From positions 1-28,041 of the forward strand of contig JBBCAV010000019.1 in the NCBI GenBank assembly GCA_051382305.1: 28,041 bases of DNA, written 5' to 3'. The notes under the pieces are model-generated. The model was not told the DNA's origin. It did not search any database and saw only the letters and a list, made by a program, of their open reading frames with translations. Positions 1 through 27,088 of this stretch are shown here, one piece after another (the stretch's first letter is position 1; each line of letters begins with the position of its first letter). Position numbers and translations under genes: made by a program. The DNA is from Bdellovibrionota bacterium FG-2 (lineage in GTDB: Bacteria > Bdellovibrionota > UBA1018).

Positions 1-33
1 GTGGAGTAATGTCCATGGAGCGAAGGGAACCAC
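1..33 (+). ncRNA. Group II intron domain III, 3' part
   Basis: Hairpin GTGGA(1-5)/TCCAT(12-16) with a GTAATG loop, followed by the conserved GGAGCGAAGG and the 3' strand of the basal stem (GAACCAC). Confidence 0.7.
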
Positions 34-1466
34 ATCAAGCGAACCTATTTAAGCTCACTCCCGAGCCCTGTTCATATGGGCCATTTAAGGGATACGCGAG
101 ATTAGATCGGATAAACTTAGCTGCCCGCAAGAACGAAAACCTAAAATTCAAGGCACTTTTGCCTCAATTTTCGGTTGAAAATCTGCGGCAGGCATTCCGG
201 AGCCTAGACGGATCAAAGGCTGTCGGAATCGATCAAGTCACCAAAGATCACTATGCCAAGAATCTTGAGGCCAACTTGCAACAACTGGCTGATCGAATCT
301 CACGCGGCGGATGGAGACCCCAGCCCTCTCGTGAAGTTCTGATCCCAAAAGCCAGCGGCGGCACAAGGCCACTAGCCATCGGCTGCCTGGAAGACAAAAT
401 CGTCCAGCAACTGGGGGCCAAGATTTTAGAAGCAATCTACGAAGACTCGTTCCATCGCCACAGTTTTGGGTTTAGGCCCAAACGCAACACTCACCAAACT
501 ATTGCAAGACTCTACAAGGTCATTCAAGAGTGCGGGGAGAACTGTGTCGTAGTAGAAATGGACCTGGAGAAATTCTTTAACTCCATGGATCACGAGAAAC
601 TTCTAGAAATCTTATCGGTTAGAATCGAAGACCACCACTTTCTCCGGTTGATCCGAAGAATGCTGAGGAACTCCATTCTCACCGAAGAGGGCGAAATCAG
701 GCTAAATGAACGAGGAACCCCACAAGGTGCCCCAATCAGCCCGATCCTCGCGAATATCTATTTAGACGCTTGTCTGGACTCTTGGTTTGAACAAAACTGG
801 GGACAGCACGCGCAGATGGTGCGCTATGCTGACGATGCCGTTTTCGTGTTTACGGACATGAAAAGGGCGGAGGAATTTAAAAACAGCCTGGCCAACCGTT
901 TTGAAGACTTTAAGCTCAAAATGAACGACAACAAATCGGGCATTACGAACTTCAATCTTCACTCCCCGGAGGCAGAAATCCAATTCCTGGGTTTCCACCT
1001 TTATTGGGGAAAGAAATCCTCCGGCAGCTCAAAGAAGCTGCTTAAGGTAAAGACGTCACCCAAGAAGCTCGGTAAAAGCATTGAAGCTTTTGGCGAATGG
1101 ATCAAAGCCCGACGAAGCCGACTGACCTTAGATAAAATCTGGGCGCAAACAGCTCAGAAACTCCGAGGTCACTACAGCTACTACGGCCTAGTCTTCAACC
1201 GCTCAAAACTCAACCACTTCTACCACGCCATCACGGGGACGCTCTTTAAGTGGCTCAACCGCAGGTCTCAGAAGAGTTCTTACACTTGGGACGGCTTTAT
1301 AAAACGCCTCAGGTACAAGCCTCTTCCAAAGCCCTCGGAAGCCGCACTAATAGATATCACCTCTGGAACTGTTCCTGAGTTGAAACGTAAAATGAGGAGC
1401 CGTATGCGTAAATCGCGCACGTACGGTTCTAAAAGGAGTCCGGGCTTATCCCCGGTATTTACTTAA
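9..1466 (+). CDS. ltrA: Group II intron reverse transcriptase/maturase (RT0-7 plus X domain, no endonuclease domain); start codon uncertain
   Basis: Motifs KAVGIDQVT, IPKASGGTRPLAI, LEDKIVQ, SFGFRPKR, DLEKFFNSMDH, GTPQGAPISPILANIYL, RYADD, FLGF; X-domain LRGHYSYYG and WLNRRSQ; no HNH motif. Confidence 0.95.
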   Translation: MSMERREPHQANLFKLTPEPCSYGPFKGYARLDRINLAARKNENLKFKALLPQFSVENLRQAFRSLDGSKAVGIDQVTKDHYAKNLEANLQQLADRISRGGWRPQPSREVLIPKASGGTRPLAIGCLEDKIVQQLGAKILEAIYEDSFHRHSFGFRPKRNTHQTIARLYKVIQECGENCVVVEMDLEKFFNSMDHEKLLEILSVRIEDHHFLRLIRRMLRNSILTEEGEIRLNERGTPQGAPISPILANIYLDACLDSWFEQNWGQHAQMVRYADDAVFVFTDMKRAEEFKNSLANRFEDFKLKMNDNKSGITNFNLHSPEAEIQFLGFHLYWGKKSSGSSKKLLKVKTSPKKLGKSIEAFGEWIKARRSRLTLDKIWAQTAQKLRGHYSYYGLVFNRSKLNHFYHAITGTLFKWLNRRSQKSSYTWDGFIKRLRYKPLPKPSEAALIDITSGTVPELKRKMRSRMRKSRTYGSKRSPGLSPVFT

Positions 1467-1467
1467 T
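1396..1467 (+). ncRNA. Group II intron catalytic domain V and branch-point domain VI
   Basis: DV: GAGCCGTA(1397-1404) pairs with TACGGTTC(1422-1429), AGC triad at 1398-1400, 2-nt bulge near 1419-1421. DVI: AAG/CTT, bulged A1461, GAGT/ATTT, CCGGG/CCCGG. The branch A is the 7th nt from a terminal AT. Confidence 0.92.
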
Positions 1468-3181
1468 GAAGATTACTGCAGCATATTTCAAGACACTGAT
1501 CTGGTGGATTTGCGCTCTTCTCACTTGCCTTGTGCTTGGACTTTACGCCTATCACTACACCGACATCCTTCTTACGGGAGACGCTGCCTATAACCATATG
1601 CAGGCCAAAGAAGTGCTTTCGCTTCGGCATTTAGATCTTGTGCATATCGGGTATCAATATTGTGGTTTAACTGACCATTTTATTCCCGGAATTTTGAGTT
1701 ATTTTTTGCCCTATGGGCTCTCTGCGATTGCGGGCATCCTGGTTTTTTTCGGCGCAGGGTATTTCTGCATCCGAAATGAGTTTCAACCTTCACTCAGGCC
1801 TATGATACTCCTGCTGCTTGTGCTGCCTTTTCCATGCCTCTTCATTCAAACCTACTCGGCTCAAGGGGGGCACACCTATGTCATTTTTCAGTTCTTTTTG
1901 GGCATTTGGATCTTGAGCCGATCGTATTTCAAAGACAAACACGGAAGCTATAATGTCTTAACCTATGCCGTTGCGGGCCTTTCCTATGGGTTTGCGCTCT
2001 ATGCGTTTCTGCTCTCTCAGCTAGCGGGTATATGCCTTTTTGCGTGCCTGTTTTTCCTAGATCTTGTTCTTCTGGTTCGGGAAAAACCCCTCAAATATCT
2101 CGCGGCTCTCCCGCTTAAGATAGGCGCCGCTTGGATTGGATATAAGTTTGGCAACTTTCCCTACGCCTACTCGTTGCATCGTTTTCCGGATGCACACACA
2201 TTCAACACTCCGAATCAGATGAACTTTTCATCCTCTCATGCTCTCGAAACCCTGCCAAACTTGTGGGAGGCGCTTTCGCATTTGTTCATGCCTAATTTTG
2301 CACATGGGCTAATCCTTGAGGGATTTTACAATCACTTCAGTTTTCCGCTTCAGGAAGTTCTTGCCCATTATTCTTGGATCGGCGTTGCCATATGCAGCGG
2401 ATTCCTCGTGTGTTTTCTCTTGCTAACCTTGCGGGCACTGTGGCGATCGAGAATGAAGAATCCGTTCATCCTCTATTTGAGTCTTAATTTTGCCGCTTTT
2501 ACCGCCGCTTACCTTTTGCGAGCAGAAACCATTACCGCGATACATGGAACTAGGCACCTTATGGTCGTTTACTTTGTCCTGATTCTTGGGGTCATTCGCC
2601 TAATGAAGCCTCGTTACGGATTGATCCTCGCGTCTTTGATCGTTATCTTGAGTCTCGGCAGTCACTTTGAGATTCTCAGGGCAAATGGAGACTATTTAGC
2701 GAAATTGAATGAGGATTCGTCCTGCACTTCACTGACTCGCGGACAGGTCCAAACGCTTCTCCGCGAGATACAGCCGCCTGCAATGGCTGGCCCCTACATG
2801 ACGATCTGGCCTCTAGCACTCGCTTCTTACAACAACCTCGTTTTAGATGTCGAAAAACGCAAATTCTACTTTCATTTGGATGAGTTTAGCAGGCTGCCCA
2901 TGACAATGTTTTTCTACCACTCGGATTCCAAGGCCCAGATCCTTGAACGGATAAAGGCAGGGTTTCCTCGAATGCCCGGCGCAGATCAGAACCGAAGCTT
3001 TATAGAAACAGAGCTTGGTTTCTACACCGCATATTTTGAAATCATGAATCCTATCGCCTGGAAGGAGTTTCTCAAGAAGCGCTCGCTTCCCGAGGTTTCA
3101 GGATGGCCAGAGCTTATTGATCAAAAGGTCGCTGCGTTTGGAAAAGTCCCGTGTGCAAAGATGGCCCCCACCGTTTGGTAA
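1466..3181 (+). CDS. Polytopic membrane protein, putative GT-C-fold glycosyltransferase
   Basis: 571 aa with many hydrophobic helices; acidic motif after TM1 (TGDAAY) and GYQYCG; TRHL in a late loop; soluble C-terminal domain. Confidence 0.65.
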   Translation: MKITAAYFKTLIWWICALLTCLVLGLYAYHYTDILLTGDAAYNHMQAKEVLSLRHLDLVHIGYQYCGLTDHFIPGILSYFLPYGLSAIAGILVFFGAGYFCIRNEFQPSLRPMILLLLVLPFPCLFIQTYSAQGGHTYVIFQFFLGIWILSRSYFKDKHGSYNVLTYAVAGLSYGFALYAFLLSQLAGICLFACLFFLDLVLLVREKPLKYLAALPLKIGAAWIGYKFGNFPYAYSLHRFPDAHTFNTPNQMNFSSSHALETLPNLWEALSHLFMPNFAHGLILEGFYNHFSFPLQEVLAHYSWIGVAICSGFLVCFLLLTLRALWRSRMKNPFILYLSLNFAAFTAAYLLRAETITAIHGTRHLMVVYFVLILGVIRLMKPRYGLILASLIVILSLGSHFEILRANGDYLAKLNEDSSCTSLTRGQVQTLLREIQPPAMAGPYMTIWPLALASYNNLVLDVEKRKFYFHLDEFSRLPMTMFFYHSDSKAQILERIKAGFPRMPGADQNRSFIETELGFYTAYFEIMNPIAWKEFLKKRSLPEVSGWPELIDQKVAAFGKVPCAKMAPTVW

Positions 3182-4225: not shown

Positions 4226-5467
4226 ATGTTGTCCTTACCTTTTCTTATCCTAGCGAGCCAAGTCCTTGGATTTGACAAACGTTTTCCCTGGAGTTGGCTA
4301 CCGCCGATCATAAGTCGAGGATTTTGGGTCGTATTTTCTATCTTCTTTTTTGAGGTGGCACTCAATCGGGAACTTCGAATTAAGCTGAATCATGCTTGCT
4401 CGTGGATCGTCGATAGCCCTTGGTTCTATCGCGTGCTCCTGGCTTTAAACGCAGCGTACGTGTTTCTAAATTATTTCTATTTTAGAGACCTGGCATACCG
4501 TTTTCCATGGGTCGCCATCTTGCTGTGTTTCAGTGGGTTTTTCGTAGTCAAAAAAAATTCTATCGGGCGGGGATTTATTCTCTCCCTACTCCTGCTATTT
4601 TCTTCCATCCTATTTTTTCCGATTACTGATCGCCGTTCCGAGATGCTTCCCGTCATTTCAGAACTGATTACTGGTTGGAGAAACGGGCAACGCGGAATGG
4701 TTTTACCCTATTTTCCGGGCACGATCCTTTCTCATTTTCCAGCGGCATTAATGGGACTAGATTTGAGATGGAATACGCTAATCTATCGCGCGGGGTGGTT
4801 ATTTCTTCTTTGGAAGCAGGTGAAAAATCTTCCATCTGAATCTTCCTGGCGAGGCATGGCGATTTTTTTAGTCCTCAATCCATACTTGACTTATCGCCAT
4901 GAGGTCGGTTTTGAGTTTTTTGTTTTCTTAGTGGCTGTTTTCTGGAGTGCCTCTACGGCGCGTGGCGTCGTTCTTGCGGGCCTAGTGCTTACCCACGAGT
5001 GGGCATTAGTATTAACGCCCTTCGTTTTGCTAGATTGGGAAAAAAGGAGGCAATTCAAGCAAAGGCTTGGCGAATTCGCAGTCGGCCTAGGTTTTGGAGC
5101 TATTCTCATAAAACAAGTTTTTTTGGGTGGTTCTTTTTGGATTCTTTTTACTGCTGGCTTGGGATTGACCGGATCAAAACTAAATCCGCGTCTAGGGGAC
5201 TATGGGATTAGTTTTACACCGCTTTTTATAGAGCTCCGGTGGCTATCAACACTACAAATCGTACAGACTTCTGGAATCATACTCGCGTTCGGATGGGTGC
5301 TTATTCACGAGGCAAAGGAAACACAATATTGGGGTTGGGTAACACTTGCCGGAGTTGTTACATTAAGCTGTAATTACTCAAATTATTATTGGTTTCCTGT
5401 GGTGTTTTTTCTAATGATGGGCGTTTTGTGTGGTGAGATTCGAGAAGATTTTCCAGATACCCAATAA
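4226..5467 (+). CDS. Polytopic membrane protein, possible GtrC/GT-C-type transferase
   Basis: 413 aa, highly hydrophobic; RSEMLP and PYFPG motifs; directly downstream of the GtrB-like gene. Confidence 0.55.
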   Translation: MLSLPFLILASQVLGFDKRFPWSWLPPIISRGFWVVFSIFFFEVALNRELRIKLNHACSWIVDSPWFYRVLLALNAAYVFLNYFYFRDLAYRFPWVAILLCFSGFFVVKKNSIGRGFILSLLLLFSSILFFPITDRRSEMLPVISELITGWRNGQRGMVLPYFPGTILSHFPAALMGLDLRWNTLIYRAGWLFLLWKQVKNLPSESSWRGMAIFLVLNPYLTYRHEVGFEFFVFLVAVFWSASTARGVVLAGLVLTHEWALVLTPFVLLDWEKRRQFKQRLGEFAVGLGFGAILIKQVFLGGSFWILFTAGLGLTGSKLNPRLGDYGISFTPLFIELRWLSTLQIVQTSGIILAFGWVLIHEAKETQYWGWVTLAGVVTLSCNYSNYYWFPVVFFLMMGVLCGEIREDFPDTQ

Positions 5468-5474
5468 TAGCTTT

Positions 5475-7454
5475 TCAAACTTTTGCAGCACGATCTAGAA
5501 TTGCGAAATCTATTTTAAAAATCTTTGCCCCATCATTGTCATATACTTTTTTATAGTAGGAAGGATATTTCTCCCAATCTACGATGCCTTCGCCCCAATA
5601 ATGATAAGCACCTAGGTACACATATCTCACGTTTCTTTGCCTCAGTTCTGTCAAAGCGTCACGACTCGTAAGATCACCCGCTAGTTTCCGGAAAATCATA
5701 ATGTCATGCGAATTCTGGTCCTCAAAAACGTCCCCGGCTGTGAAGCCGAGGAATTCTTGTCGCTGAGCAAACACTTTTAAATACATCGAAGCATCGGTCT
5801 GAAAGCTCACCCCGTTTGTAAAAACGATATTAGCGGGCAGAAAATAGTCATTTTCATCCGTATTATTCCTAATCCACGCAAACGCTTTTAGGTCAGCCTG
5901 TGACACCGGACTTAAGTGCTGACTACCTGTAAAGGCATCATAGACACCTACTTTAAGCGAATCGATTCCATAAATTAGAAAAGCTCCGACGCCAATAGTA
6001 AACAAAACTGGGAAACGCCTCAGTTTTACAAAAACAACATAGATTCCAAACACGCTAAAAAAAAGAAACGGAATGAAATCGTTCAAACTAGAATAGTGCT
6101 GAATCGAACGATTAGATACAAAATGGGGAACTATGCAGCACAATCCAAACAGCGGCAAGAACAGGAGACTATACTCCCGCCTCCAAATCGCGCTCAAAAC
6201 GCTCGCAACTACGGACAAATAGACCCCGGAAAGTGCAGTAAGCCTAAAGAACTCATGCTTTTCAAAACCTAAAAACGAAGGCAAATCCATGAGAACCTTG
6301 CCAAACTGAGACCAAAAATCTCTAACAAACAGACCCCCTGCAGCTACACTTCCTGCGCCGCTGTGACCTGGAATAATATGCCCCCCGGAGCGGGTATGTG
6401 TTAACTCCCAAAACAACAAGAGCAGACCAACAACAAAATAAAGAAACGCGCCCCCAAAGGCCGCCCAGTCCTGACGACTGTATTTTCTCAATTCTGGCAC
6501 GGCGGTCAAGGCAATACACAATAAACCCAAAGGAAGAATAACTATGTTATTATAATGAATCATGATAGCAAATAGGCTCACAGTAAGAGCCACCCCATTG
6601 GACAATAGACCCGGAGCCCTCAGCGCCACGGTCACAGCCCAAAAGGAAGCGAACAGAAAAAAGTAACCAAAAATCTGAGAATTTTTCCCTGCGGTAAAAT
6701 AAAGTCTCGAAATTGAGACGGAATACATGCAGAGAACTATAATTCCCAGATACTCAACCCCTCTTTTTTTCAAGAATGTTATCAGAAACAATCCCAAAGA
6801 AAAACCACAGAGCAGGCTCATGAAATTCGTCGTAAACAGAACAGCGCGTGCAGCATCCACCCGAGTAAAGGAACAAAGAAGCGCCGTCCAATAAGCAGCC
6901 CCAGGAGGATAGCCAGACATGAATTTTGGAAACTGTGCCAACGAAAAACCAAATCGGCTCAATTTGTCCGCAATAATGACATTAGCGGTTGGATCATGAA
7001 GAGGAGGAACCAAGAGTCCCTGCGTGGGAGCAATGAAACAGTAGAACAAAATATTGAAAAGCGTAAAAATGGCGGCATCGCCCCAACTGAGAATGGGGAA
7101 TTTTAGGCCCGGACGCATTCTCCATAGGAGAAAACCACCCGCCAAATAGACTGCGGCCAGCCCCCCCCACTGAAACCCACTACTTAAATTGAAAAAATGG
7201 CCCAAAAAATAGACAAACGAGGTCACCAGACTCGATCCCAAAATAAAACCAATGAGCCCCTGCTGCCAGAACTCCTGTGACACTTTAACGAACCCCGAAA
7301 AAAAACCGATGAGCCATCCGGGCAACACAAACAGGAAAACAATGCCTATTATCAGCCGAAAATAATCGTAGTCGCTGTTCCCCGTGGAAAACAGAATCCA
7401 CAGCCCCGCAACAAGATTGAGAAGGAACGCAAATCTGACCCCAATTCGATTCAT
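5475..7454 (-). CDS. Polytopic membrane protein, putative GT-C-fold transferase (paralog A)
   Basis: About 660 aa; PPLHDP and GYPPG motifs; C-terminal soluble domain with AFAWIRNNT, VRYVYLG and KVYDNDGAKIF. ATG 7454 has a GAGG SD and matches the paralog N-terminus. Confidence 0.7.
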   Translation of the reverse strand: MNRIGVRFAFLLNLVAGLWILFSTGNSDYDYFRLIIGIVFLFVLPGWLIGFFSGFVKVSQEFWQQGLIGFILGSSLVTSFVYFLGHFFNLSSGFQWGGLAAVYLAGGFLLWRMRPGLKFPILSWGDAAIFTLFNILFYCFIAPTQGLLVPPLHDPTANVIIADKLSRFGFSLAQFPKFMSGYPPGAAYWTALLCSFTRVDAARAVLFTTNFMSLLCGFSLGLFLITFLKKRGVEYLGIIVLCMYSVSISRLYFTAGKNSQIFGYFFLFASFWAVTVALRAPGLLSNGVALTVSLFAIMIHYNNIVILPLGLLCIALTAVPELRKYSRQDWAAFGGAFLYFVVGLLLLFWELTHTRSGGHIIPGHSGAGSVAAGGLFVRDFWSQFGKVLMDLPSFLGFEKHEFFRLTALSGVYLSVVASVLSAIWRREYSLLFLPLFGLCCIVPHFVSNRSIQHYSSLNDFIPFLFFSVFGIYVVFVKLRRFPVLFTIGVGAFLIYGIDSLKVGVYDAFTGSQHLSPVSQADLKAFAWIRNNTDENDYFLPANIVFTNGVSFQTDASMYLKVFAQRQEFLGFTAGDVFEDQNSHDIMIFRKLAGDLTSRDALTELRQRNVRYVYLGAYHYWGEGIVDWEKYPSYYKKVYDNDGAKIFKIDFAILDRAAKV

Positions 7455-7532
7455 TTTCGTCGCCTCAGCCAAAATTTCTCCCAATCGCTCTTGATTTACT
7501 CATGCTCGGGAGTCAAAGAATTTATACACGAT

Positions 7533-12426: not shown

Positions 12427-13401
12427 ATGATCATAGCACGTAGCCCTTTGCGTATCTCCCTGGGGGGAGGCGGGACCGATCTCCCTTCGTATTATCGTGA
12501 ACACGGTGGTTTTCTAGTAGCTGCCGCTATTGATAAATACGTGTATGTAACTTTTCAGCGCACTTTTGCGCAAGAAATGCTTCTGCGCTATTCGCAGATT
12601 GAGCATGTCACCCAAACTTGCAAAATCAAGCACCCCATCATTCGCGAAGCACTGAAGCTGATGGAAATCGATCAACCCAATATTGAAATTACAAGCATGG
12701 CTGATATCCCAGCGGGAACGGGCCTAGGATCTTCGGGGAGCTTTGGAACAGCACTGCTCAAGGCCGTTCATAAGTTCAAGAATTCCCACATTACCCCCAA
12801 AGAACTGGCCGAAATGGCCTGCCATATTGAGATCGACGTCCTCAAAGAACCCGTCGGCAAGCAGGATCAATTTATTGCCGCTTTTGGCGGCTTAAGCGTT
12901 TTTGAGTTTCACAAAGATGACACTGTCCATGTCCGCCCGCTTCGGATCTCTGATGAGACACTGAGCCGACTGGAAGACAATCTTCTTTTGTTCTCAACCG
13001 GAATCATCCGCTCTGCTTCCGAGATTTTAAGCGACCAGCATCAAAAGAGTTTGAAAAAAAACGCCCAAATGATTGAGAATCTCCACTTCATCAAGGAACT
13101 GGGACTTCAAAGCTGTAAAGCCCTTGAAGACGGGCGGTTAGAAGACTTTGGTCGCATCATGAATGAACACTGGGAGCATAAGAAGCGAAGGTCCAGCTCG
13201 ATCTCCAACTCTGAGATCAACAACTGGTACGATTTGGGAATGTCGGGCGGAGCGTGCGGCGGCAAACTTATTGGCGCCGGCGGGGGCGGGTTCTTGATGT
13301 TTTATACGGAAGATCCCGCGCGCCTGAGAAAAACGATGAATCAAGCCGGCCTCATGGAGTTAAGATTTTCGTTAGATTTTGAAGGGACAAAACTTCTGTG
13401 A
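12427..13401 (+). CDS. hddA: GHMP-family sugar kinase, D-glycero-alpha-D-manno-heptose-7-phosphate kinase-like
   Basis: PLRISLGGGGTD, DIPAGTGLGSSG, GKQDQ, GGKLIGAGGGGF; SD AAGGA. Confidence 0.85.
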   Translation: MIIARSPLRISLGGGGTDLPSYYREHGGFLVAAAIDKYVYVTFQRTFAQEMLLRYSQIEHVTQTCKIKHPIIREALKLMEIDQPNIEITSMADIPAGTGLGSSGSFGTALLKAVHKFKNSHITPKELAEMACHIEIDVLKEPVGKQDQFIAAFGGLSVFEFHKDDTVHVRPLRISDETLSRLEDNLLLFSTGIIRSASEILSDQHQKSLKKNAQMIENLHFIKELGLQSCKALEDGRLEDFGRIMNEHWEHKKRRSSSISNSEINNWYDLGMSGGACGGKLIGAGGGGFLMFYTEDPARLRKTMNQAGLMELRFSLDFEGTKLL

Positions 13402-15059
13402 ACTCTCAAAAAAAGGACCTAGGGCAGGTACCAATCTATGTCTTCTTGTTACTCACCATTTTACGGTTTTATCTATTGCACGGTCAACCTATGCTTGTCG
13501 GAAATTCGCCGTATGATGACGCCGGATTTGTAAGGACAGCAAACTATCTGATCCATGGAGAATGGCTCGGACCTTATTCTGACATGACCTTGATCAAGGG
13601 AGCCTTTTATCCGATTTGGATTGCCCTTTGCCATTGGTTTCATATCTCACTGCACTTCTCTCAACAGTTCCTTCATATTGTCGCTTGTTTTACGGTTCTT
13701 GTCGCCTTTCGCCCCATCATGGGTCGAGGCAGAATTGCTCTTGCTCTGTTCACTGTCATGCTCTTCAGTCCCTATCTCTACAGCGAAACTCGCGTGTTCC
13801 GGGAAGGAATCTATGGCTCCCTCACCCTGCTGATACTTGCGATATCTATTGGGACTGCCTTTAGATTGCACGCATCCCTAAAATCCCTATTGCCATGGTT
13901 GCTGAGCCTGGGTTCGATTCTTGGTTTCTTCTGGCTGACGCGCGAAGAGGGCGTATGGATTCTTCCTTCATTAGCAATCCTATGTTTCGGTGCGATCATA
14001 AAGAGCCATCAAGAACACCTTCTCAAATGGCTGAAAATCGCTTGGACACTTGGGATCCCGATGTGCGTCTGTTGCTTTTGGATACTCTTGATCGCAGCGA
14101 TTAACTTAAAAGAATATGGCCTTTTCGAAACCGTTGAATTTAACGCCCCGGCTTTTCTAAATGCTTATGGCTCTCTTCAGCGATTGCGCGTCGCCCCCCC
14201 GAGACATCGGGTTCCTGTCACTCGCGAGATGATGAAGGTCGCTTATTCAGTGAGTCCAGCCTTTCTTGAGCTTAAGCCACTTTTAGATGGGGATATGGGA
14301 AGAAATGCGGCCTGCGAGCAATTTCCGGATTGTTCCGACATTGGAGGAGGCCAGTTCATGTGGACCTTCCGGCTAGCCACAGCGGAAACGGGTCACTACC
14401 GGTTTGGGGCCAAAGCCGCAATGGCGTATTATCAGAGCATTGCTGATCAAATCAATTCGGCTTGTAACACCGGCAAAATTCAATGCCTCGCTCAAACCTC
14501 TTCCATGTTTCCCACCGATCCTTGGTTCTTTTGGAATCCCATTCTATCTCAGATCGGACATGGATTATATGTTGTCTCTCACCACGGCCCGCTCAAACTC
14601 TCTTGGACCGAACAATCAGGACCGGATCACTATGTCAATACCCTTCGCGACGTCACGGGCTCTGTAATTGTCCAACCCGGATGGAAGGATCGTCACGAGC
14701 CTGAACCCATGAATGCCTTCGGACAAAAAACTGGCGCAATGATCCTAAATTTCATTAACGTGATTTATCACGGTGTTTTGCCATATCTTTTGTTTCTTTC
14801 CTTTCTCGCGGTCTTCTATCTTCTATCCCAAAAAACAACTCGACAGGTGAAGTGGACTACCGGCTTGGTGTTCGTCTCGCTTTGGACAGCCATAATGGTT
14901 CGAATCATCTTACTGTCGATCCTTGACGTGACCGCATTTTGGGGAATCAACTCCGTTTATCTTTCACCCCTATTTGACATCGTCCTCTTAAGCAGCCTTT
15001 TCCCCTTGGCTCTATTTGCTCAGACGCTTGTTCAAAAAAGGAAAGCCAAAACTCAATGA
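13398..15059 (+). CDS. Polytopic membrane protein, putative GT-C-fold glycosyltransferase
   Basis: 553 aa; PYDD after TM1, WLGPY...TLIKG, WLTREE; large Cys-containing extracytoplasmic loop; GTGA overlap with hddA. Confidence 0.65.
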   Translation: MNSQKKDLGQVPIYVFLLLTILRFYLLHGQPMLVGNSPYDDAGFVRTANYLIHGEWLGPYSDMTLIKGAFYPIWIALCHWFHISLHFSQQFLHIVACFTVLVAFRPIMGRGRIALALFTVMLFSPYLYSETRVFREGIYGSLTLLILAISIGTAFRLHASLKSLLPWLLSLGSILGFFWLTREEGVWILPSLAILCFGAIIKSHQEHLLKWLKIAWTLGIPMCVCCFWILLIAAINLKEYGLFETVEFNAPAFLNAYGSLQRLRVAPPRHRVPVTREMMKVAYSVSPAFLELKPLLDGDMGRNAACEQFPDCSDIGGGQFMWTFRLATAETGHYRFGAKAAMAYYQSIADQINSACNTGKIQCLAQTSSMFPTDPWFFWNPILSQIGHGLYVVSHHGPLKLSWTEQSGPDHYVNTLRDVTGSVIVQPGWKDRHEPEPMNAFGQKTGAMILNFINVIYHGVLPYLLFLSFLAVFYLLSQKTTRQVKWTTGLVFVSLWTAIMVRIILLSILDVTAFWGINSVYLSPLFDIVLLSSLFPLALFAQTLVQKRKAKTQ

Positions 15060-16876
15060 TTTGGCTGCAATTTCTCTGCGTGCTGCTGCTTCAAGCAGGA
15101 ATGACTCAAGTACTTGGAGGAGTAGTTTGCCACCTTACAATGAAGCGCGGCACAACTGCAGATGCCCCACTGTACTTTCTGGTGAGACATATTCTAGGCA
15201 CAGTGATTCTCGCGATCATTGGCATTCTTGTCTTTGGATTGAATATTCCAAATTCGGCTGCATTTGTATTTTTTTGGCCAATCTTCTTCGCCGCCTTGAT
15301 ACTATCAATATTCTTAAAAAGAAAGGAACTCCCGCCATGGGCCCCCATTAGAAGGTCTGGAACATGGTTTATTGAAAATCGCATCCTGTTTGCCCCTGTC
15401 CTTTTCGCGCTTTTTATTTCGGCTTTCTTTTTTTTCCCCTTTGGGCCCGAACTCCTCAAAACTGAAGTAAACTGGCATCACACCTCTTCACGACTCTACC
15501 CACTCAATGACAGCGCGCTTCAATTCTGGGTCTCGAACAACTTCTTTTTCAGAAGACCCATTGAAAACGGCTTTCATCTCAGCAACTGGGTATGGAGTGC
15601 AGGCGATCGGCCGATGCTTATGGCGCTGCTAGACGCCACCTCAAGCCTCCTTACGGGAGAAAAGGAACTCCACCTCAATCACTACTCCATCCGCATTTTT
15701 TATTCTGTTGCAGTGCTCATTGTCCCGTTCTTTGTCTTATTTGGCCGAATCCTCCGACAGCCCATCAAGACTGTTGCGCTCGTTTTTGCCGCAATGACTT
15801 TGCATCCCTTTTTTCTTACCAACTTTCAGTTTACCTGGCCAAAGGCCGCCGGGACGTCCTTTTTTTTGTGCGGCTTGGTCCTCGGATTAGAGGGATTGGA
15901 GGCCATTAGTCCTGCTCGTCGCAATCTCCACCCAAAGAGTTTTCTGAATCTTTTGTGGATCTCCAGCGGACTTGCTCTTGCTTTTTCACTGCTTTGTCAC
16001 GAAACACTCATTTTTGGAGTCGCAGCAGCGCTCACTTTTCTCACATGGAAAAGCCGCCCGTTGAGCCTAGGCCTTGCGAGAAATCTCAAAAAAGAAATCC
16101 TGATTGTTTGTTTTTCCTTTATCTTCCCTCTTTCCATTCACAGCATTTACGTGAAAACTCATACCACCGCCTTTGGTCTGCTAAAGATTGCCGCCTTTTG
16201 CCGAGAAGGGTCCTTCTCGTTCAAAAATGAGCCCACAACTTTGGTTGAGGCCTGTATCCGATACTATCATCGCGCAGGGCCAATAGGCATAGTCCGAGAC
16301 CACCTTTCAAGCCTCGGTAGTGCGTTTGTTTCTGGATGGAGCGACATTGCCATTGAAGCGCACCAGCTCCTATCAGGACAGTGGCAGGACCTCATAAACA
16401 GCTACTATTACAATGGACGGTACGTTCCGATTTTTGCCTACGGCTTCTGGAACCTCCCCCTGCTAGGCGTCGTTATCGCAACGATCATTTTTCGACGAAA
16501 AGCCGTTCCTCCCCATTTGAAGGATTTGATTGCCCTTTATTTTGTCGGATTTATTTTTCTTTTTCTCTTTGCGGCTAGCATGAGCGAATCTTCGGAAGTC
16601 ACAGCGATGCAAATACCGCTCACTCAACAAATTCTTGTTTTTTCTTGCGGGCTTTTCCTCTGGGCTCATAAATTCCGAAAAATCATTTCAGCCTTCATCG
16701 CCTTATATTCGACTTGTTGCATCGTAATGTACTATTATTGCGATTCTCAAATTCTCAAACTTAAAATTAACGGGTTTTTTTATTTTATGAGCTATTTTTT
16801 CCTCATCGCCTCCATTGCGCTGATGCTTCAAGCCCCTCTATTCCCATTCGAGAAATCAATTGCAAAAACGGAATAA
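15056..16876 (+). CDS. Polytopic membrane protein, putative GT-C-fold transferase
   Basis: 606 aa; LNDSALQ, WSAGDRP, FTWPK, LCH motifs; ATGA overlap with the upstream gene. Confidence 0.6.
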   Translation: MIWLQFLCVLLLQAGMTQVLGGVVCHLTMKRGTTADAPLYFLVRHILGTVILAIIGILVFGLNIPNSAAFVFFWPIFFAALILSIFLKRKELPPWAPIRRSGTWFIENRILFAPVLFALFISAFFFFPFGPELLKTEVNWHHTSSRLYPLNDSALQFWVSNNFFFRRPIENGFHLSNWVWSAGDRPMLMALLDATSSLLTGEKELHLNHYSIRIFYSVAVLIVPFFVLFGRILRQPIKTVALVFAAMTLHPFFLTNFQFTWPKAAGTSFFLCGLVLGLEGLEAISPARRNLHPKSFLNLLWISSGLALAFSLLCHETLIFGVAAALTFLTWKSRPLSLGLARNLKKEILIVCFSFIFPLSIHSIYVKTHTTAFGLLKIAAFCREGSFSFKNEPTTLVEACIRYYHRAGPIGIVRDHLSSLGSAFVSGWSDIAIEAHQLLSGQWQDLINSYYYNGRYVPIFAYGFWNLPLLGVVIATIIFRRKAVPPHLKDLIALYFVGFIFLFLFAASMSESSEVTAMQIPLTQQILVFSCGLFLWAHKFRKIISAFIALYSTCCIVMYYYCDSQILKLKINGFFYFMSYFFLIASIALMLQAPLFPFEKSIAKTE

Positions 16877-18722: not shown

Positions 18723-20720
18723 ATGAAGTTCACCCTTTGTCTCAATCTGATTGTCACCTTTTGGGTGCTTCTTAAGGCAGGAAACGACCAATACGATTAT
18801 ATCCGAATCATGCTATGGATGATCCTCCTCTTTGGCTTTCCCGGCTGGTTGATGGGCCTTTACTCTGGGATGATTAGGTACTCCCAGGAATTTTGGCAGC
18901 AAGGACTTATCAGTTTCATAATAGGATCGACCGTCGTCACTTCTTTAGTTTACGTGCTCGGACACTTCTACACCCTAGGGAACATCACTCAGTGGTTAGG
19001 ATTCGGACTCTTCTATGTGTCATTCGGGCTTGGTGTGAAACGATTGAAGCCGCAGCTTAAACTGCCGATTTTGTGTTGGGAAGATATCGTGCTAATGACC
19101 CTTTTTAATATTCTTCTCTATTGTTACATCGCCCCAACGGAAGGGCTTATCGTCCCACCACTCCACGACCCCTCCGCAAATGTGATCATTGCAGACAAAT
19201 TGAGCCGATTTGGCTTTAGTTTGGCCCAATTTCCAAAGTTTATGTCGGGCTATCCACCCGGGGCGGCCTATTGGACTGCACTACTTCGCTCCTTTTCCCG
19301 CGTTGACGCCGCAAGAGTCGTTCTTTTTTCGACAAATTTTATGAACATGATGTGTGCCTTCTCATTTGGCCTTTTTATAAAGACCTTTTTTGAAAAGAAG
19401 GACTTAATGCCCCTAGGAGTCATTGTTCTCGGCATGTTGTCCGTGTCAATTTCTCGGATGTATTTCGAAGCAGGAAAGAATTCACAGATTTTTGGATATT
19501 TCTTTCTCTTTGCCTCTTTTTGGGCGGTGACTGCTGCATTGAGAAGTCCGCGACTTTCTTCAAATTTCCTCGCTATGACAACCTGTCTTTTTGCAATTTT
19601 AACCCACTACAACAATATCATTATTCTCCCTCTAACCCTTTTTTGCATTACCTTAACGCTTCTGCCGATTTTTCGAAAATATCGCACTAAGGAATGGTGT
19701 TATTTTGCAGCAGGCATTTTCTATTTTTCCGGATGCCTGCTTCTCATGTTTTGGGACCTCAAACATACACGCTCAGGAGGACACATAATTTCGCAGGGCA
19801 AAGAAGGGGGGGGTAGCGCTGTCGGAATTGTTGTTGATAATTTTTGGGCCGAACTAGGCAACGCGATTCTTAATGCACCCGCAGTCTTGGGCTCTGAGAA
19901 GAATCCCCTTTACCGTTTCACTGCACTTTGGGGGCTGTATTTTGCTCTTGGATTTAGCGTCTGGACCTTAGTCCGAAAGCGACAAATTAGGCTCATTTTT
20001 CTGCCACTTTTTGGAATTGTTTGTCTGATTCCTCACTTTCTTACCAATCAATCTGTTCAACGCTACTCCACCTTGAACGATTTTCTCCCATTTCTCTTTT
20101 TTAGTGTATTTGGAATCTATTTTGTTGTTTCAAGAGTTAAACGCGTGAAGTGGTTATTCATCGCTTCACTTACGTGTCTCTTGTTTTTCGGCATTATCTC
20201 ACTTAAACTCAATGTTTATACACCATTTTCCCAAGGCCGACGATTAAGCCCCGTCACCCGCGCTGATATGGATGCCTTCGCGTGGATAAAGAATAACACG
20301 AAAGAAACTGATCACTTTCTACCAGCAAACATCGTACTGGCGCACGGGGTTGCCTTTCAAACTGATGGATCAATGTATTTGAAAGTGTTTGCTCAAAGAC
20401 AGGAACTCTTGGGATTTACTGCGGGCGACGTATTTGAAGACCAGAACCCACACGACATCGAACTCTTCCAAAAGCACGCAAGGGATCTCACAAATCCAGA
20501 TGTATTGAAAGAATACCAAGCGAGAAATATTAATTACGTTTATGTGGGCCCCTACCATTATTGGGGACCTGGAATTTGGGATTTGGAGAAGCATCCCGTC
20601 TTATATCAAAAAGTATACGATCATGATGGGGCCAAAGTTTTCAAAATAAATTTTCCTCATTTTACGAATAAGATAAAGACCTCGGACTTAGGATCGCTCA
20701 GAAGGAAACACCAGGCATGA
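18723..20720 (+). CDS. Polytopic membrane protein, putative GT-C-fold transferase (paralog B of 5475-7454)
   Basis: 665 aa, collinear with paralog A, including an identical 37-aa block ANVIIADKLSRFGFSLAQFPKFMSGYPPGAAYWTALL. Confidence 0.7.
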   Translation: MKFTLCLNLIVTFWVLLKAGNDQYDYIRIMLWMILLFGFPGWLMGLYSGMIRYSQEFWQQGLISFIIGSTVVTSLVYVLGHFYTLGNITQWLGFGLFYVSFGLGVKRLKPQLKLPILCWEDIVLMTLFNILLYCYIAPTEGLIVPPLHDPSANVIIADKLSRFGFSLAQFPKFMSGYPPGAAYWTALLRSFSRVDAARVVLFSTNFMNMMCAFSFGLFIKTFFEKKDLMPLGVIVLGMLSVSISRMYFEAGKNSQIFGYFFLFASFWAVTAALRSPRLSSNFLAMTTCLFAILTHYNNIIILPLTLFCITLTLLPIFRKYRTKEWCYFAAGIFYFSGCLLLMFWDLKHTRSGGHIISQGKEGGGSAVGIVVDNFWAELGNAILNAPAVLGSEKNPLYRFTALWGLYFALGFSVWTLVRKRQIRLIFLPLFGIVCLIPHFLTNQSVQRYSTLNDFLPFLFFSVFGIYFVVSRVKRVKWLFIASLTCLLFFGIISLKLNVYTPFSQGRRLSPVTRADMDAFAWIKNNTKETDHFLPANIVLAHGVAFQTDGSMYLKVFAQRQELLGFTAGDVFEDQNPHDIELFQKHARDLTNPDVLKEYQARNINYVYVGPYHYWGPGIWDLEKHPVLYQKVYDHDGAKVFKINFPHFTNKIKTSDLGSLRRKHQA

Positions 20721-22699
20721 CCAGGGAAGCAACCAGGATTTGGGGATTATTGGTATTTTGCGCAGTCACTGGCTTTGGAACACGTGCGGCGCTAAGAGCC
20801 TTACCAGCCCAGGAGCTTGAAATTTCCTACACTGGGGCAGCGACAGACACTACGCTGGATGTTTTCTATGATTTCGGTTTTGATCGCAAAACCCACATCC
20901 ACGACTCAACTCGGCACGCACTGAAATCCGGGAACGGAAGGATTCATTTCTCACTTTTGAGAAAACCAATTCTAGGGCTACGGCTTAATCCAAGCCCAAA
21001 GTCCGGGCTTCCACAGATTCAATCTATTCTGGTGAAGGTGGGTAGCGCTGCAATCAATGTCGACCCGGCCGAACTTACTGAGAATGCGCAGGGCAAGTGG
21101 AGCTTAGATCTCGATAGAGGCAACGATTCAATCCCCAGGGTATCTCCTCTCAGGCCTGACCGAAACCGAGCTGCAACCTCAGCGATGTCAATCCTCTACG
21201 AAACGAAAGCGATCAAGAGCAAGATCTTTGTATTCAGATCCATTCTAGGATTCCTGGCACTCTTTACTGCAAGCCTTCTATCCCTGGTCATCCTCAAATG
21301 GGGCAAAATTGAACCCTATCTTAGTCGCTGGACCACGAAATCTGACCGCCTCGTCGAGGCCCTAATCGCCCATCCGCGGTTTGAATCACTTTGGATGAGT
21401 ATGTGCGGCACTTGGTTTCTCATGCAGACTTTGTTTTTCGCGCTTCGAATCAAAAACAACATTCCACCAGATGAAGCTTGGCATTTTCGCAGACTGAACA
21501 TTTTCTTAAATACAAAAGCCCTCTGGTTTTCAGAAACCCCTGAAATCTACCCCCTCGGGGCGTTGGGTCACATGGGCAATCTTCACCCCCTCCTTACCGC
21601 GCCCCTAATTAGCATTAGCCAATTCTTCGCTTGGGATCCATTTCTAGCCCTCAGACTTTCGAGCGTCGCATTTTCTCTTGGTACATTTTTCTATACGTTC
21701 TTGTTGCTGCGCCTTCTTGTCAGCAATCTCCTTACACGTTGTGCGATAATGGCCTTCTTTTCAAACATCCTCATGTTTACCTTTATTTCGAGCGCTATCT
21801 CATACGACGCACTCACAAACCTTTTGGCTATCGCATCAGTGTTTCATCTTATGCGTTTTGGGAAAATGGGACGGACCGAGGACTTGTTTTTTCTATGCCT
21901 CACCTGGGCGGCAGGAGCGATTACCAAAATCACCTTCTTGCCGCTCATCGCACTCGAATTGATTCTACTGCTCCAGCAGGGCTACTCTATGCAGTGGCAC
22001 AGAACGATCAACCTCGAAAAGCTGCGACAGTCGCTTAAGACAAAAAGGCGTAAAGCCGTTTTGCTTGTGACACTTTTCTTTGGCATTTGGGGCGTAAGCC
22101 TTTATGGCCGCAATCTCATAACCTATCACGCATTGGAGCCGGGCATTGACTTAATCACTACCCCTGCCACGGCACTCGAATCTAACGCCGAATACCGAAC
22201 GACGCAAGAGCGCCTCGAAACGCGTGATTCTAGGGCCGAGCTGTCTTTTGGTAGCTTCTCCAAAGATTGGGTAAAAATGATGGTGACCAAGACTTTTGGG
22301 ATTCACGCCCACCTAAATCTGTTTAAAGACACGAAAGAGCTATGGCCCATCTATTTTCTAATCTATGCCTCTTTGTTTGCCTTTCTGTTTTCTTATAGGC
22401 ATTTGTTTTCTGAAAGAACTTTCTTACAGCTTCTCTTCCTGTCGGCTGGATACGTCGTCATTGTTTTTATGCAAAATCTAAAATCGCAAACCGAATTTCG
22501 AATTATCGGAATTGCAGTCCAGGGCCGCTATCTTTTTCCAGTGCTTGCGCCTCTGCTCATCGTCCTATTTCACCCCATCTTTTCCTTCGTAAGAAGCCGC
22601 ACGGGACAAGCGCTTCTCACTCTATTCACCTTAGTCACAGGGGGCTACGGAGGCTTTATTTACTTTATTAGTAATGCAGGTCCCGAGTGGTTTAGATAA
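20717..22699 (+). CDS. Membrane protein: N-terminal extracytoplasmic domain plus PMT/ArnT-like GT-C domain
   Basis: PPDEAWH, LRLSSV, ISYDAL, TKITF, QGRYLFP motifs; soluble segment after TM1. Confidence 0.7.
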   Translation: MTREATRIWGLLVFCAVTGFGTRAALRALPAQELEISYTGAATDTTLDVFYDFGFDRKTHIHDSTRHALKSGNGRIHFSLLRKPILGLRLNPSPKSGLPQIQSILVKVGSAAINVDPAELTENAQGKWSLDLDRGNDSIPRVSPLRPDRNRAATSAMSILYETKAIKSKIFVFRSILGFLALFTASLLSLVILKWGKIEPYLSRWTTKSDRLVEALIAHPRFESLWMSMCGTWFLMQTLFFALRIKNNIPPDEAWHFRRLNIFLNTKALWFSETPEIYPLGALGHMGNLHPLLTAPLISISQFFAWDPFLALRLSSVAFSLGTFFYTFLLLRLLVSNLLTRCAIMAFFSNILMFTFISSAISYDALTNLLAIASVFHLMRFGKMGRTEDLFFLCLTWAAGAITKITFLPLIALELILLLQQGYSMQWHRTINLEKLRQSLKTKRRKAVLLVTLFFGIWGVSLYGRNLITYHALEPGIDLITTPATALESNAEYRTTQERLETRDSRAELSFGSFSKDWVKMMVTKTFGIHAHLNLFKDTKELWPIYFLIYASLFAFLFSYRHLFSERTFLQLLFLSAGYVVIVFMQNLKSQTEFRIIGIAVQGRYLFPVLAPLLIVLFHPIFSFVRSRTGQALLTLFTLVTGGYGGFIYFISNAGPEWFR

Positions 22700-24942: not shown

Positions 24943-27081
24943 CTACTGGCCTTCCTGAATCACAAAAAAATAAGACTCTTTGGCTAAACTCTGAATCACA
25001 TCAAAGTGGGCATACTGCATCAACTGAAATGCCTGATAAACTTGGGGCCGATCTCCCTTTTGCGTCACCATTTTGAGGTCTGTCTTTTTGAAATCTTTAG
25101 GGAGGTGCGCAACACTTTGCGCGTCCTCTGGCAACATCAGATAGACTTTCAAATCGGGCCTGGGCAAAAGCGACAATGCCCCTTCAGGCGGACGCTTGCG
25201 CGCCAGCTTATTCAAATGCTCCGTATGCTGCCGTGTCTTATCATACTCAAAGAAGTAACGCTCCTCAGACTCAATTCCTCGCGCATCAACGACAATTGCC
25301 CCACGCAGCGCTTCGTCAAGTTCCGAAATCCGCGCTTCCGCCTGCCCATACTCAACAGGCATTCCCTCCCAAACACGCCCCACTCTCAACCCATTTAACT
25401 TCAAATTCTGAAAGACGAAATCGACATCATTTTGGGCCAAAACCACACGATCCGAAAGCAGGGCGAGCAACGGTCGGTCAAGCTTTGGGATTCGATTCTT
25501 CATGAGATCGTCATAGGCCAGTTGGGCCGGAATCCAATACTGCCTACGCGCATAGAGTGCACGCTCCCAGCCATACCGATTGTAATTCACGTCGAGCCGA
25601 TGCCGTATTTGGGTAGTATGAAAAAGACCTCGTCCAAACAAGACCAAAAAAGCAGCGATAGCAACAAACCAAAAACGAGAAACCCGCTCTGGATTCCATT
25701 TTGAACTCAATTCAAGTACCAACAAAAAGCCCGATAAAAACAAAAGCCACTCCATCCATAGGAGATCTCTTAAAACAAAACGCGATCCAAAAACAGCATT
25801 AGCATAGGCAAGCGATACCAAGACGAAGAGCGCACAAAACCTCTTGTCCTTAAAAATGGAAAACCCACTTTTGCGAAACATCGGAACAAAGTAGGTTGAA
25901 CACAAAACCACATGGGTCAAATACAGAACGGGACTGAAGCCAACAAAGCGAATAAAACCTTTGAACGAGTCCTTCAATCCAACGGAGTAGTACATCTTAC
26001 GCATAAACAGGATCTTGAAATCATAAAGCAGATAAGTCCAACCGAGCTCTCCAGCAATAGCGATAAAATGCAGTGCAAATGACGCCAAAAATCCTGTAAC
26101 CAGGAGGCTCCCTAAGGCCGCAAACTCAGAAACTGGGCGCCTCCAAAGCGGAGAAAAAACATAAACCTGGCCGACCATCAGGGCACAAAACAATATCGAA
26201 ACACTTGTCACACCCCAGGCCTTAAAATAGGTCTCATGGGCTGCATAAATATGGAGATCAAAAACTCTCCAAAAAAGCAGCAAAAAGACCGCTAAGTTAA
26301 CGACCGAAAGTCCATGATAGCGCCGCAGCAAAGACTTCGCTAAAGTTCGCTTCCCCTCCGGCGGCGCGTGCGAACTCCAAAACAGATATAGGAAAGCCGG
26401 AAAAGAAAGCAGATAAAAAAACGACTGAATCTTTGTCAAAAACGAAAGCCCTAACAAAACCCCACAAATAAGGGGTGCCCCAATGTTCCTAACCTTAGAC
26501 GGCGAACCGCCGCGCTCTGAGGCGAAAGCGAATGATGCAATCCAAAGCGCTAGGGCCCAAAACAAGAAACTATAGAGCTCGGTCCTCGAAATTGCCGCTT
26601 GATAAGTGAATGATGCCTGAACGCCCACAAACAACAACAACGCGGCTGAGACCCAAACCCCAGAACTCTTGAACCAGGTCCTTAACACCCCCCAAACCGC
26701 CAATACACAAACCAAAACCATCCAAGGACTCAGCGCCCGAACATTCAAAACATTCTCCGCAATAACCCCCAACGGATTAAGCGAAGCCTTAAGTTCCGGG
26801 ATCGAACACGGGGTACTATACCCAACAAAAGCCCCGATCTTAGCCAGAATTAGAAACAGGAGGTACATCCCAAAACCCGTATGATTCAAATGCGCAGGAA
26901 TCTCACCTCCCTGAAGAACGCAAGAATCCAGGGTCGAGACATAGTCCAAATCAAAAACAAAATAGTAGGGGTACTTCGAAGATAAAAAGGAATAAAACGC
27001 CAACAGAGAAGCGGCGATCAGGGCAATCAACACTGAACCTACATTAGAATTCTCGGAAAACTTAGAATTAGCTTTCAACAC
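24943..27081 (-). CDS. Large polytopic membrane protein, putative GT-C-fold transferase
   Basis: About 710 aa; FDLD after TM1, HLNHTGFG, RTELYS, LTKIQ; soluble C-terminal domain. Start is probably GTG 27081 or TTG 27078, after a GAGGG SD. Confidence 0.6.
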   Translation of the reverse strand: MLKANSKFSENSNVGSVLIALIAASLLAFYSFLSSKYPYYFVFDLDYVSTLDSCVLQGGEIPAHLNHTGFGMYLLFLILAKIGAFVGYSTPCSIPELKASLNPLGVIAENVLNVRALSPWMVLVCVLAVWGVLRTWFKSSGVWVSAALLLFVGVQASFTYQAAISRTELYSFLFWALALWIASFAFASERGGSPSKVRNIGAPLICGVLLGLSFLTKIQSFFYLLSFPAFLYLFWSSHAPPEGKRTLAKSLLRRYHGLSVVNLAVFLLLFWRVFDLHIYAAHETYFKAWGVTSVSILFCALMVGQVYVFSPLWRRPVSEFAALGSLLVTGFLASFALHFIAIAGELGWTYLLYDFKILFMRKMYYSVGLKDSFKGFIRFVGFSPVLYLTHVVLCSTYFVPMFRKSGFSIFKDKRFCALFVLVSLAYANAVFGSRFVLRDLLWMEWLLFLSGFLLVLELSSKWNPERVSRFWFVAIAAFLVLFGRGLFHTTQIRHRLDVNYNRYGWERALYARRQYWIPAQLAYDDLMKNRIPKLDRPLLALLSDRVVLAQNDVDFVFQNLKLNGLRVGRVWEGMPVEYGQAEARISELDEALRGAIVVDARGIESEERYFFEYDKTRQHTEHLNKLARKRPPEGALSLLPRPDLKVYLMLPEDAQSVAHLPKDFKKTDLKMVTQKGDRPQVYQAFQLMQYAHFDVIQSLAKESYFFVIQEGQ

Positions 27082-27088
27082 GTCACCC

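Follow-up and report, generated by a model that had tools for sequence, protein, structure and literature searches.

The first 28,041 bases of contig C19 of Bdellovibrionota bacterium FG-2, hereafter the window, begin inside a group II intron whose last two bases lie within the start codon of the following gene. The genome is in 433 contigs and is 85% complete. Window positions 1–1467 are the 3′ three quarters of this multi-copy intron, which encodes a reverse transcriptase (RT) without an endonuclease domain. The junctions of its relatives place the whole clade inside start codons, in the arrangement exon ...NT | GUGCG...U(A/G)AU | G... exon. With this arrangement, spliced RNA would restore the original start codon, and unspliced RNA would carry a replacement AUG composed of the intron AU and the exon G. 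We consider it probable that these are start-codon introns of leaderless host genes, in which a relay of ribosomes through the intron makes the insertion neutral for the host protein.

Overlap of the intron 3′ end with the host start codon

The part of the window that holds the intron and its host gene contains the following features.

1..9, + strand: end of the upstream intron frame, ORF1 (GTG GAG TAA), from the sequence
9..1466, + strand: RT/maturase open reading frame (ORF), 485 amino acids (aa), with the TAA stop at 1464–1466, from the ORF list and Pfam
1396..1430, + strand: ribozyme domain V (DV; domains I–VI are abbreviated likewise), from the Rfam RF00029 alignment and the fold
1433..1464, + strand: ribozyme domain VI with the bulged branch-point A at 1461, from Rfam RF00029 and the fold
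1464..1468, + strand: TAATG, comprising the RT stop (1464–1466), the intron terminal AT (1466–1467) and the host ATG (1466–1468)
1466..3181, + strand: host gene encoding a 571-aa polytopic membrane protein, with the ATG at 1466–1468, from the ORF list

The eight bases 1461–1468, ACTTAATG, bring together the branch-point A, the RT stop, the last AU of the intron and the host ATG, as the first-pass annotation of this DNA had proposed. The covariance model RF00029 for group II DV/DVI aligns over its full length (1–77) to positions 1395–1467 with 40.3 bits (gathering score 40 bits) and an E value of 8.2e-5. The same positions fold with −29.2 kcal/mol (z −3.93), which is equalled by 0 of 200 shuffles. 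The only bulged A in DVI is at 1461, the seventh base from the intron end, and DV begins with GAGC in the RF00029 alignment, giving an AGC triad. The 3′ splice site at 1467|1468, also claimed before, is supported by the end of the RF00029 alignment and by intron copies that diverge after 1468: positions 1–127 of contig C189 are 100% identical to window 1342–1468, with divergence beginning at 1469, and three different contigs of the only public run found for the locus part ways directly after 1468. Two further claims of the first-pass annotation also hold. RT residues 463–485 (23 aa, RSRMRKSRTYGSKRSPGLSPVFT) are the translation of positions 1395–1463, so that the RT frame reads through both DV and DVI. 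The TAATG stop–start overlap is present as well, and with it the AU that the intron would supply to the host ORF in unspliced RNA.

The word AGGAG lies on the 5′ strand of DVI (window 1434–1439) and is common to all of the clade members listed. It resembles a Shine–Dalgarno sequence and is located 26 nucleotides (nt) 5′ of the host ATG; the DVI helix would draw both close together.

The RT itself is assigned by a Pfam RVT_1 match at residues 112–331 with an E value of 1.2e-37. The maturase domain is weakly detected when taken alone, with GIIM at residues 363–427 reaching 20 bits, under the cut-off of 23, and no endonuclease domain was detected by Pfam in the 485 residues, which match RVT_1, GIIM and a sub-threshold RdRP_1 overlapping the RT domain. 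The closest solved relatives are group IIC RTs (E 4.5e-42), followed by the T. elongatus and LtrA RTs at about 1e-27. The window lacks the intron 5′ end; sister copies in the same genome start with GTGCGCC, in agreement with the GUGYG consensus. Because the mismatch frequency of the RT tail over DV/DVI is very low at all three codon positions (0.041/0.084/0.070), this tail appears to be constrained by the RNA.

A single clade with the RT stop on the 3′ splice site

Relatives of the RT were sampled from 60 related genomes, from 80 loci of species-representative genomes and from 80 loci of metagenomes, and the layout was scored in the 129 loci with a long RT frame carrying a YADD-type motif. The RT stop lies 1 nt before the 3′ splice site, in the form T(A/G)A-T|, in 47 of these loci including the window, and in none of the other 82. 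We calculated a FastTree phylogeny from RT residues 1–440, excluding the tail encoded by DV/DVI. The 46 non-identical RTs that stop at the splice site form one side of a branch with a support of 100, versus 75 others; the layout requires a single change on this tree, which none of 500 label shuffles matched. The recurrence of the layout in 47 of the 129 loci and its restriction to one clade mark it as a lineage trait rather than a chance stop loss. The two outgroup introns L048 and L051 have the RT stop 103 nt before the intron end.

Within the clade, the stop 1 nt before the intron end is kept in 13/14 genome-derived members (the exception, L054, has a decayed RT) and in 32/34 metagenome-derived members (the exceptions, L128 and L134, have broken frames). 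This constancy is in line with an earlier suggestion for the window, namely that the arrangement may make the insertion harmless without splicing.

Among distant relatives (L055–L108 and L171–L193; RT 33–37% identical), the RT stop is often directly before DV, as in GGTAG|GAGCC, and some of them stop in the apparent DV (AGCCCGGTGCGTTAG). RT frames that touch DV may thus be common in the wider family; the clade described here appears to be the only one with an RT frame running to the last intron base.

Insertion inside start codons

The junction census comprises 55 distinct 3′ junctions and 45 distinct 5′ junctions, with no duplicates found; the 5′ ends of L118 and L146 were dropped as not trustworthy. 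The first base of the 3′ exon is G in 52/55 junctions, A in two and C in one. The 5′ exon (n = 45) ends with AT in 36 cases, GT in six, TT in one, CG in one (L041) and GC in one (L054). Numbered from the insertion point, position −3 is C in 23 and T in 10 of 43 junctions, −2 is A or G in 42/45, −1 is T in 43/45 and +1 is G in 52/55. The ATG formed at the junction opens a frame that extends as far as the contig allows in 39 of the 49 cases with a flank of at least 15 codons, of which up to 98 codons were scored. Random ATGs of this genome predict 13.3 open frames of 49, and no simulation of 200,000 exceeded 29.

The Pfam matches place junction ATGs at the true N-termini of unrelated proteins: a phosphofructokinase, a Mur ligase, a YceI protein with a signal peptide, two histidine kinases, a globin, an IS3 transposase OrfA, an E1 dehydrogenase and an AAA ATPase. 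The alignments begin close to the first residue of both protein and profile:

PFK: residues 4–311 on profile 1–277, with the junction ATG at the N-terminus
IS3 HTH_Tnp_1: residues 4–76 on profile 2–74
PAS: residues 4–111 on profile 2–113
globin: residues 11–108 on profile 3–100
AAA_14: residues 22–136 on profile 4–128

We also joined the 5′ and 3′ exons in 12 pairs. An in-frame stop occurs 1–12 codons upstream of the junction ATG, with no alternative start, in six of them. L039 has no upstream stop within 26 codons, alternative starts are present in L036, L040 and L044, and the exon of L037 is too short to judge. For the window copy, the joined exons would read NTG followed by AAGATT..., giving the same start and the same protein; this is expected because the 5′ exons of its sister copies end with AT or, more generally, NT.

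A stop-free frame through domains I–III

The reading frame leading from the host start codon into the intron is open as well. In the full-length relative of genome G018, the exon AT and the intron G open a frame of 147 codons through DI–DIII, which ends with TAATG at the RT start. The window keeps the final codons of this frame at positions 1–9: the ORF1 stop (7–9) overlaps the first RT ATG (9–11) as TAATG, and GGAG at 3–6 precedes the second RT ATG (15–17) by 8 nt. In relatives the GAAGTGGAGTAATG context likewise closes an open frame of 147–155 codons. The 5′ fragments found elsewhere in the same genome have this frame open across all of the 36–42 codons present, and ORF1 is open from the exon AU to the RT start in 10/14 genome-derived and 20/26 metagenome-derived members.

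In an alignment of ten members with 56–88% nucleotide identity, columns with stops number 0 in the ORF1 frame versus 38 and 29 in the other two frames. The mismatch frequencies by codon position are 0.206/0.232/0.220 in ORF1, versus 0.208/0.135/0.465 in the RT. Because ORF1 lacks a third-position excess of mismatches, we rejected it as a real protein, and the pattern indicates conservation as an absence of stops and not as a peptide. Compensatory changes at 61 of 114 predicted ribozyme pairs in the clade alignment indicate that the ribozyme fold is under selection alongside the open frame.

Promoter signals upstream of the insertion sites

The upstream flanks were compared as a set of 37 non-redundant 5′ exons with a flank of at least 42 nt, five from this genome, 10 genome-derived and 22 metagenome-derived. 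L029, L041 and L054 (odd junctions), L118 and L146 (untrusted 5′ ends) and five short flanks were left out. The controls were 2525 crude gene starts of this genome, taken as the first ATG of ORFs of at least 200 codons, and here +1 is the A of the start codon. The enriched bases are listed below.

A at −11: 25/37, control 32.6%, p 1.4e-5
T at −7: 21/37, control 26.0%, p 7e-5
T at −35: 21/37, control 27.4%, p 1.6e-4
T at −36: 20/37, control 28.6%, p 1e-3
C at −1: 18/37, control 26.2%, p 3e-3

At −12 (17) and −13 (16), too, T is the most frequent base. Control starts show a purine-rich Shine–Dalgarno zone instead; a Shine–Dalgarno-like motif was found at 0/15 insertion sites, compared with 36% of the 2525 control starts. 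A two-hexamer promoter score is above that of the controls with p 6e-5, and with p 0.007 against AT-rich controls. In a separate promoter scan, sigma-70-like sites end 8 nt (C142) and 6 nt (C220) before the ATG. A divergent gene starts 30–150 nt upstream at 6/13 sites. From these positions we infer a sigma-70 −35/−10 pair with the transcription start predicted at the A of the start codon. Since the promoter signal puts the start at this A and no Shine–Dalgarno motif is found, the host genes are probably leaderless.

Other copies in the same genome

Depth in the public run, which consists of contigs, is 46 over window positions 98–1468, 15.2 downstream and ~71 over 1–200, which indicates roughly three full copies plus extra 5′ parts. 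One contig with a depth of 25 departs from the intron sequence after window position 127, a little way into the 5′ region of the RT, and represents a variant or a truncated copy. The genome contains five 5′ junctions and three 3′ junctions with unrelated flanks; the 5′ junctions were found with the 5′ region of a full-length relative as the query. Four of them are at contig ends (C142, C180, C220 and C424) and one is in a complete ORF-less copy on C40. The exon reads ...AT|GTGCGCC at all five, with unrelated DNA upstream. C180, C220 and C424 carry the same intron 5′ end over 109–127 nt, with one base different in C220 near the contig end, and their flanks have AT alone in common. The mobility of the element is evident from these several copies with different flanks and the ~3-fold depth.

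On the 3′ side, the junction ATG of C189 starts a 391-aa AAA_14 ATPase, and in the third 3′ branch the frame is open from the ATG across the 30 letters seen. The C40 copy (G000:C40:469-1503, L109) is 663 nt long and consists of DI–DIII and DV/DVI without an RT. Its ribozyme and those of the relatives match RF02005 (group-II-D1D4-6). Its length is a multiple of 3, it is free of stops, and it is in frame with a 123-aa host ORF; unspliced RNA from this locus would encode a 344-aa fusion.

In the same-genus genome G001, a 541-aa membrane gene lies before the GT2 neighbour, and before it comes DNA that matches contig C400 of the present genome. C400 was considered as the 5′ partner of the window and rejected, as it ends in another multi-copy repeat and gave no link. 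The 541-aa protein was likewise rejected as a relative of the 571-aa protein, with a best E value of 2.9 and no detectable relationship. The repeat on C400 (18049–18348) also occurs at the ends of C76, C433, C174, C118 and C202, is 98–100% identical on at least six contigs, and sits between the conserved neighbour gene and the expected continuation of the window locus.

Further repeats and introns were observed in this genome. One repeat (C424:1–173, C40:64–237, C86 and C185) is located a few hundred bases upstream of two intron copies, and on C40 it adjoins an IS200-like transposase fragment. A tandem repeat links C142:25191–25490, at the far end of C142, with C178:1–148, with offsets of 72 nt within C142 and 24 nt relative to C178. 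C313:9000–16141 (L005) contains two RT genes and two D1–D4 matches (RF02005 at 1231–1452 and RF01999 at 4227–4345); one RT is split around the other, as if one intron were nested in another. Group II introns that are more distantly related (RTs 27–40% identical) are present on C317 (L004), C201 (L006) and C422 (L007). The C317 intron is ~640 nt from a tRNA gene (L004 5234–5307), and C422 has DV/DVI near a contig end with a separate D1–D4 1.4 kb away.

The host gene and its cluster

The 571-aa host protein is polytopic, begins with a hydrophobic helix and is encoded by the first gene of a glycan-synthesis cluster. It has no Pfam match, it finds only itself among 5.8 billion protein clusters, and neither an intron-less allele nor a homologue was found in the 60 related genomes. 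The label 'glycosyltransferase' given to it earlier is thus unsupported and was a guess from the cluster context. The cluster encodes GT2 and GT1 transferases, methyltransferases, an epimerase, heptose-pathway-like enzymes and other membrane proteins without Pfam matches. Five further large ORFs (553–720 aa) of this cluster, also without a Pfam match, lie in the window at 5475–7484, 13398–16876, 18723–22699 and 24943–27108.

A proposed ribosome relay and its alternatives

In the mechanism that we propose, the host ORF, having no ribosome-binding site of its own, would lie 1.9 kb inside the unspliced RNA. The 5′-terminal AUG, formed by the exon AU and the intron G, would open the stop-free frame across DI–DIII. 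The ORF1 frame would terminate in UAAUG on the RT start, and the RT frame would cross DIV, DV and DVI and end in U(A/G)AU|G on the host start. Ribosomes would thus be passed on by termination–reinitiation from ORF1 to the RT and from the RT to the host ORF. Splicing, when it occurs, would restore the original codon. The insertion would be neutral for the host protein either way, because the relay serves the unspliced RNA and splicing rebuilds the start codon, and the intron would borrow the promoter and the start signal of its host.

Several points weigh against this interpretation. First, the junctions are not uniform: 3/55 3′ exons do not begin with G, L041 does not span an ATG, L042 is inside a Ser/Thr kinase gene (kinase motif), and the junction of L038 is 19 codons from the end of a 270-codon frame. 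Ten of the 49 junction ATGs open short frames only, and short frames of 4–48 codons are found in L034, L035, L038, L044, L054, L124, L144 and L154. Short metagenome contigs may also pair the 5′ and 3′ flanks of different copies; such mispairing affects the joined-exon test, not the separate junction counts. Second, the contig starts inside the intron, so the 5′ exon of the window copy itself is not recovered; no contig overlaps the first 127 bases of C19, and synteny with G001 gave no link. Third, ORF1 is interrupted in L036, L037, L041, L120, L121, L127, L128, L134 and L136, and in L038 it is open and overruns the RT start by 33 nt. The start-codon position does not depend on ORF1, as several interrupted copies are still in start codons; the members without an intact ORF1 retain the RT-to-host overlap and the GGAG before the RT start. 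Regarding the promoters, only 5/15 sites reach 8 or more of 12 in the two-hexamer match, and the controls are crude and come from one genome, with the sites coming from many genomes and being more AT-rich (0.62 versus 0.54). Finally, a transcript that starts at the A would leave a 5′ exon of only 2 nt for the second splicing step, and ribosomes crossing DI–DVI should oppose ribozyme folding.

How the clade finds its sites may be considered separately. A candidate for exon-binding site 1 (EBS1) is a UAUG hairpin loop that is conserved in DI; in the C40 copy this loop reads UAUU, and the base at −3 is A. Base pairing for site choice can cover about four positions only. One possibility, which we put forward tentatively, is that the clade homes to the transcription start of leaderless genes and that the landmark is the open promoter complex, either the melted DNA or the polymerase. 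The insertion point at +2/+3 on the sense strand would coincide with the downstream edge of the open-complex bubble of RNA polymerase. The intron ribonucleoprotein, pairing with YAU|G only, would then use this complex in much the way that group IIC introns use hairpins. The inserted intron would have evolved to be read by ribosomes over its full length, and the 5′-terminal AUG, the sole start signal of a leaderless gene, would thereby be relayed through ORF1 and the RT to the host ORF.

A considerably less likely alternative to the relay is that YAT|G targeting, by a 3-bp pairing of EBS1 with intron-binding site 1 (IBS1) and one EBS3–IBS3 pair, acts together with selection. Copies elsewhere would be lost, translation would be incidental, the terminal UAAU and the open frame would be by-products of RNA constraint, and host expression would depend on splicing. 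The insertion sites do share positions −3 to +1 only, and the UAUG loop, with its UAUU variant and A at −3 in C40, could be EBS1. The RNA-constrained RT tail over DV/DVI and the six plus three clade members without an intact ORF1 also fit this explanation. However, a YATG should occur by chance about every 128 nt on each strand. Neutral intergenic survivors should be common, and few are seen. Only 4.3% of random ATGs start long ORFs, yet 39/49 sites look like gene starts. RNA constraint alone leaves unexplained the absence of stop columns in the ORF1 frame, which holds down to 56% identity. The in-frame ORF-less copy on C40 and the −35/−10 signal at a fixed distance are also left unexplained.

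It is very improbable that the intron acts as a switch, as the first-pass annotation suggested, with splicing joining GAAGATT... to an unrelated 5′ exon and thereby turning the gene off or giving it a new N-terminus. The 5′ exon of the window copy is outside the contig, and 2/45 sister 5′ exons, those of L041 (CG) and L054 (GC), do not end in NT. Against this, all five 5′ junctions of the same genome have AT, 43/45 junctions overall have AT, GT or TT, and joining the exons of full-length relatives leaves the ATG and the ORF unchanged, with an in-frame stop a short way upstream. The idea of a single chance stop loss, after which the RT frame runs to a next stop that happens to touch an ATG, has nothing further in its favour than that one locus alone cannot exclude it, and it is refuted by the recurrence of the layout in 47/129 related RT ORFs of one clade at 55 distinct 3′ junctions. 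Sister copies that stop before DV at unrelated sites had been named beforehand as the mark of such an accident; the opposite was found.

Comparison with known introns and with operons

The closest precedent in position is the IIB1/CL1 clade, whose introns lie in start or stop codons or beside them (Michel, Costa, Doucet & Ferat 2007, via PMC12584367). Insertion between the second and the third codon position leaves a working codon there, as here, and PMC12584367 states that how these introns find start and stop codons is unknown. The two clades differ in several respects. The CL1 RT has a C-terminal endonuclease domain, which is lacking in the 485-aa RT of the present clade. IIB1/CL1 introns contain a subdomain Ia of 300–700 nt, whereas in the present clade the distance from the 5′ splice site to the RT start ranges from 441 to 468 nt and the alignment has no such insertion. 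IIB1/CL1 introns home to one conserved gene (for example at the groEL stop codon), whereas the present copies are in unrelated genes that share YAT|G only. The passages of PMC12584367 on that clade describe neither a stop-free DI–DIII frame, nor an RT stop on the 3′ splice site, nor a link to leaderless genes.

The present clade resembles group IIC introns in its RT without an endonuclease domain, with group IIC RTs as the closest solved structures, and in its insertion at varied sites that share a genomic feature rather than a sequence. Its exon pairing may likewise be very short, as the sites share only −3 to +1 and EBS1 is a candidate loop. However, group IIC introns insert after terminators or attC hairpins, and the present sites are gene starts, not gene ends. 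An IIC-like upstream hairpin gave no signal, with 2/15 5′ exons at z ≤ −2, and a scan found no terminator-like site next to C142 or C220. Group IIC introns use a CGC triad in DV, whereas the present DV has AGC. PMC4424553 goes no further than 'CGC for some introns'. The match of the ribozyme to Rfam group-II-D1D4-6 is counted as a further difference from IIC.

In the yeast mitochondrial introns aI1 and aI2 the protein frame is continuous with the upstream exon. The present frame similarly enters the intron from the exon and runs through DI–DIII; however, it begins at the host start codon, has no conserved peptide and stops in UAAUG before a separate RT frame. Overlapping stop and start codons (UAAUG or AUGA) are the sign of translational coupling in bacterial operons. 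The TAATG overlap occurs twice here, between ORF1 and the RT and between the RT and the host; the latter differs from operon coupling in that a splice site falls within the overlap and in that the host gene is preceded by a ribozyme and its RT as cistrons.

Beyond the IIB1 clade, a literature search covering titles and the starts of abstracts, with few subscription journals, found no group II intron at leaderless genes, no bacterial case of an exon-initiated DI–DIII frame and none of an RT stop on the 3′ splice site. As far as searched, this clade of start-codon introns, which is probably tied to leaderless genes, is previously undescribed.

Implications

Copies of this intron break assemblies, and the window itself starts inside one. 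For annotation, genes that follow such introns start with an ATG that is partly intronic. The lineage also points to probable leaderless genes in phyla that have received little study, and it offers a naturally occurring case of a ribozyme that would have to fold while ribosomes read through it. The usual view of bacterial group II introns is that they persist either by keeping out of genes or by efficient splicing. The present lineage suggests a third way, in which the intron settles in the start codon and is traversed by ribosomes, so that the host gene could be expressed without depending on splicing. If the link to leaderless genes is true, the target would to our knowledge be of a kind new among retroelements, a functional landmark consisting of the transcription start and the start codon rather than a sequence or a hairpin, and it would make testable the question of how the known start- and stop-codon introns find their sites.

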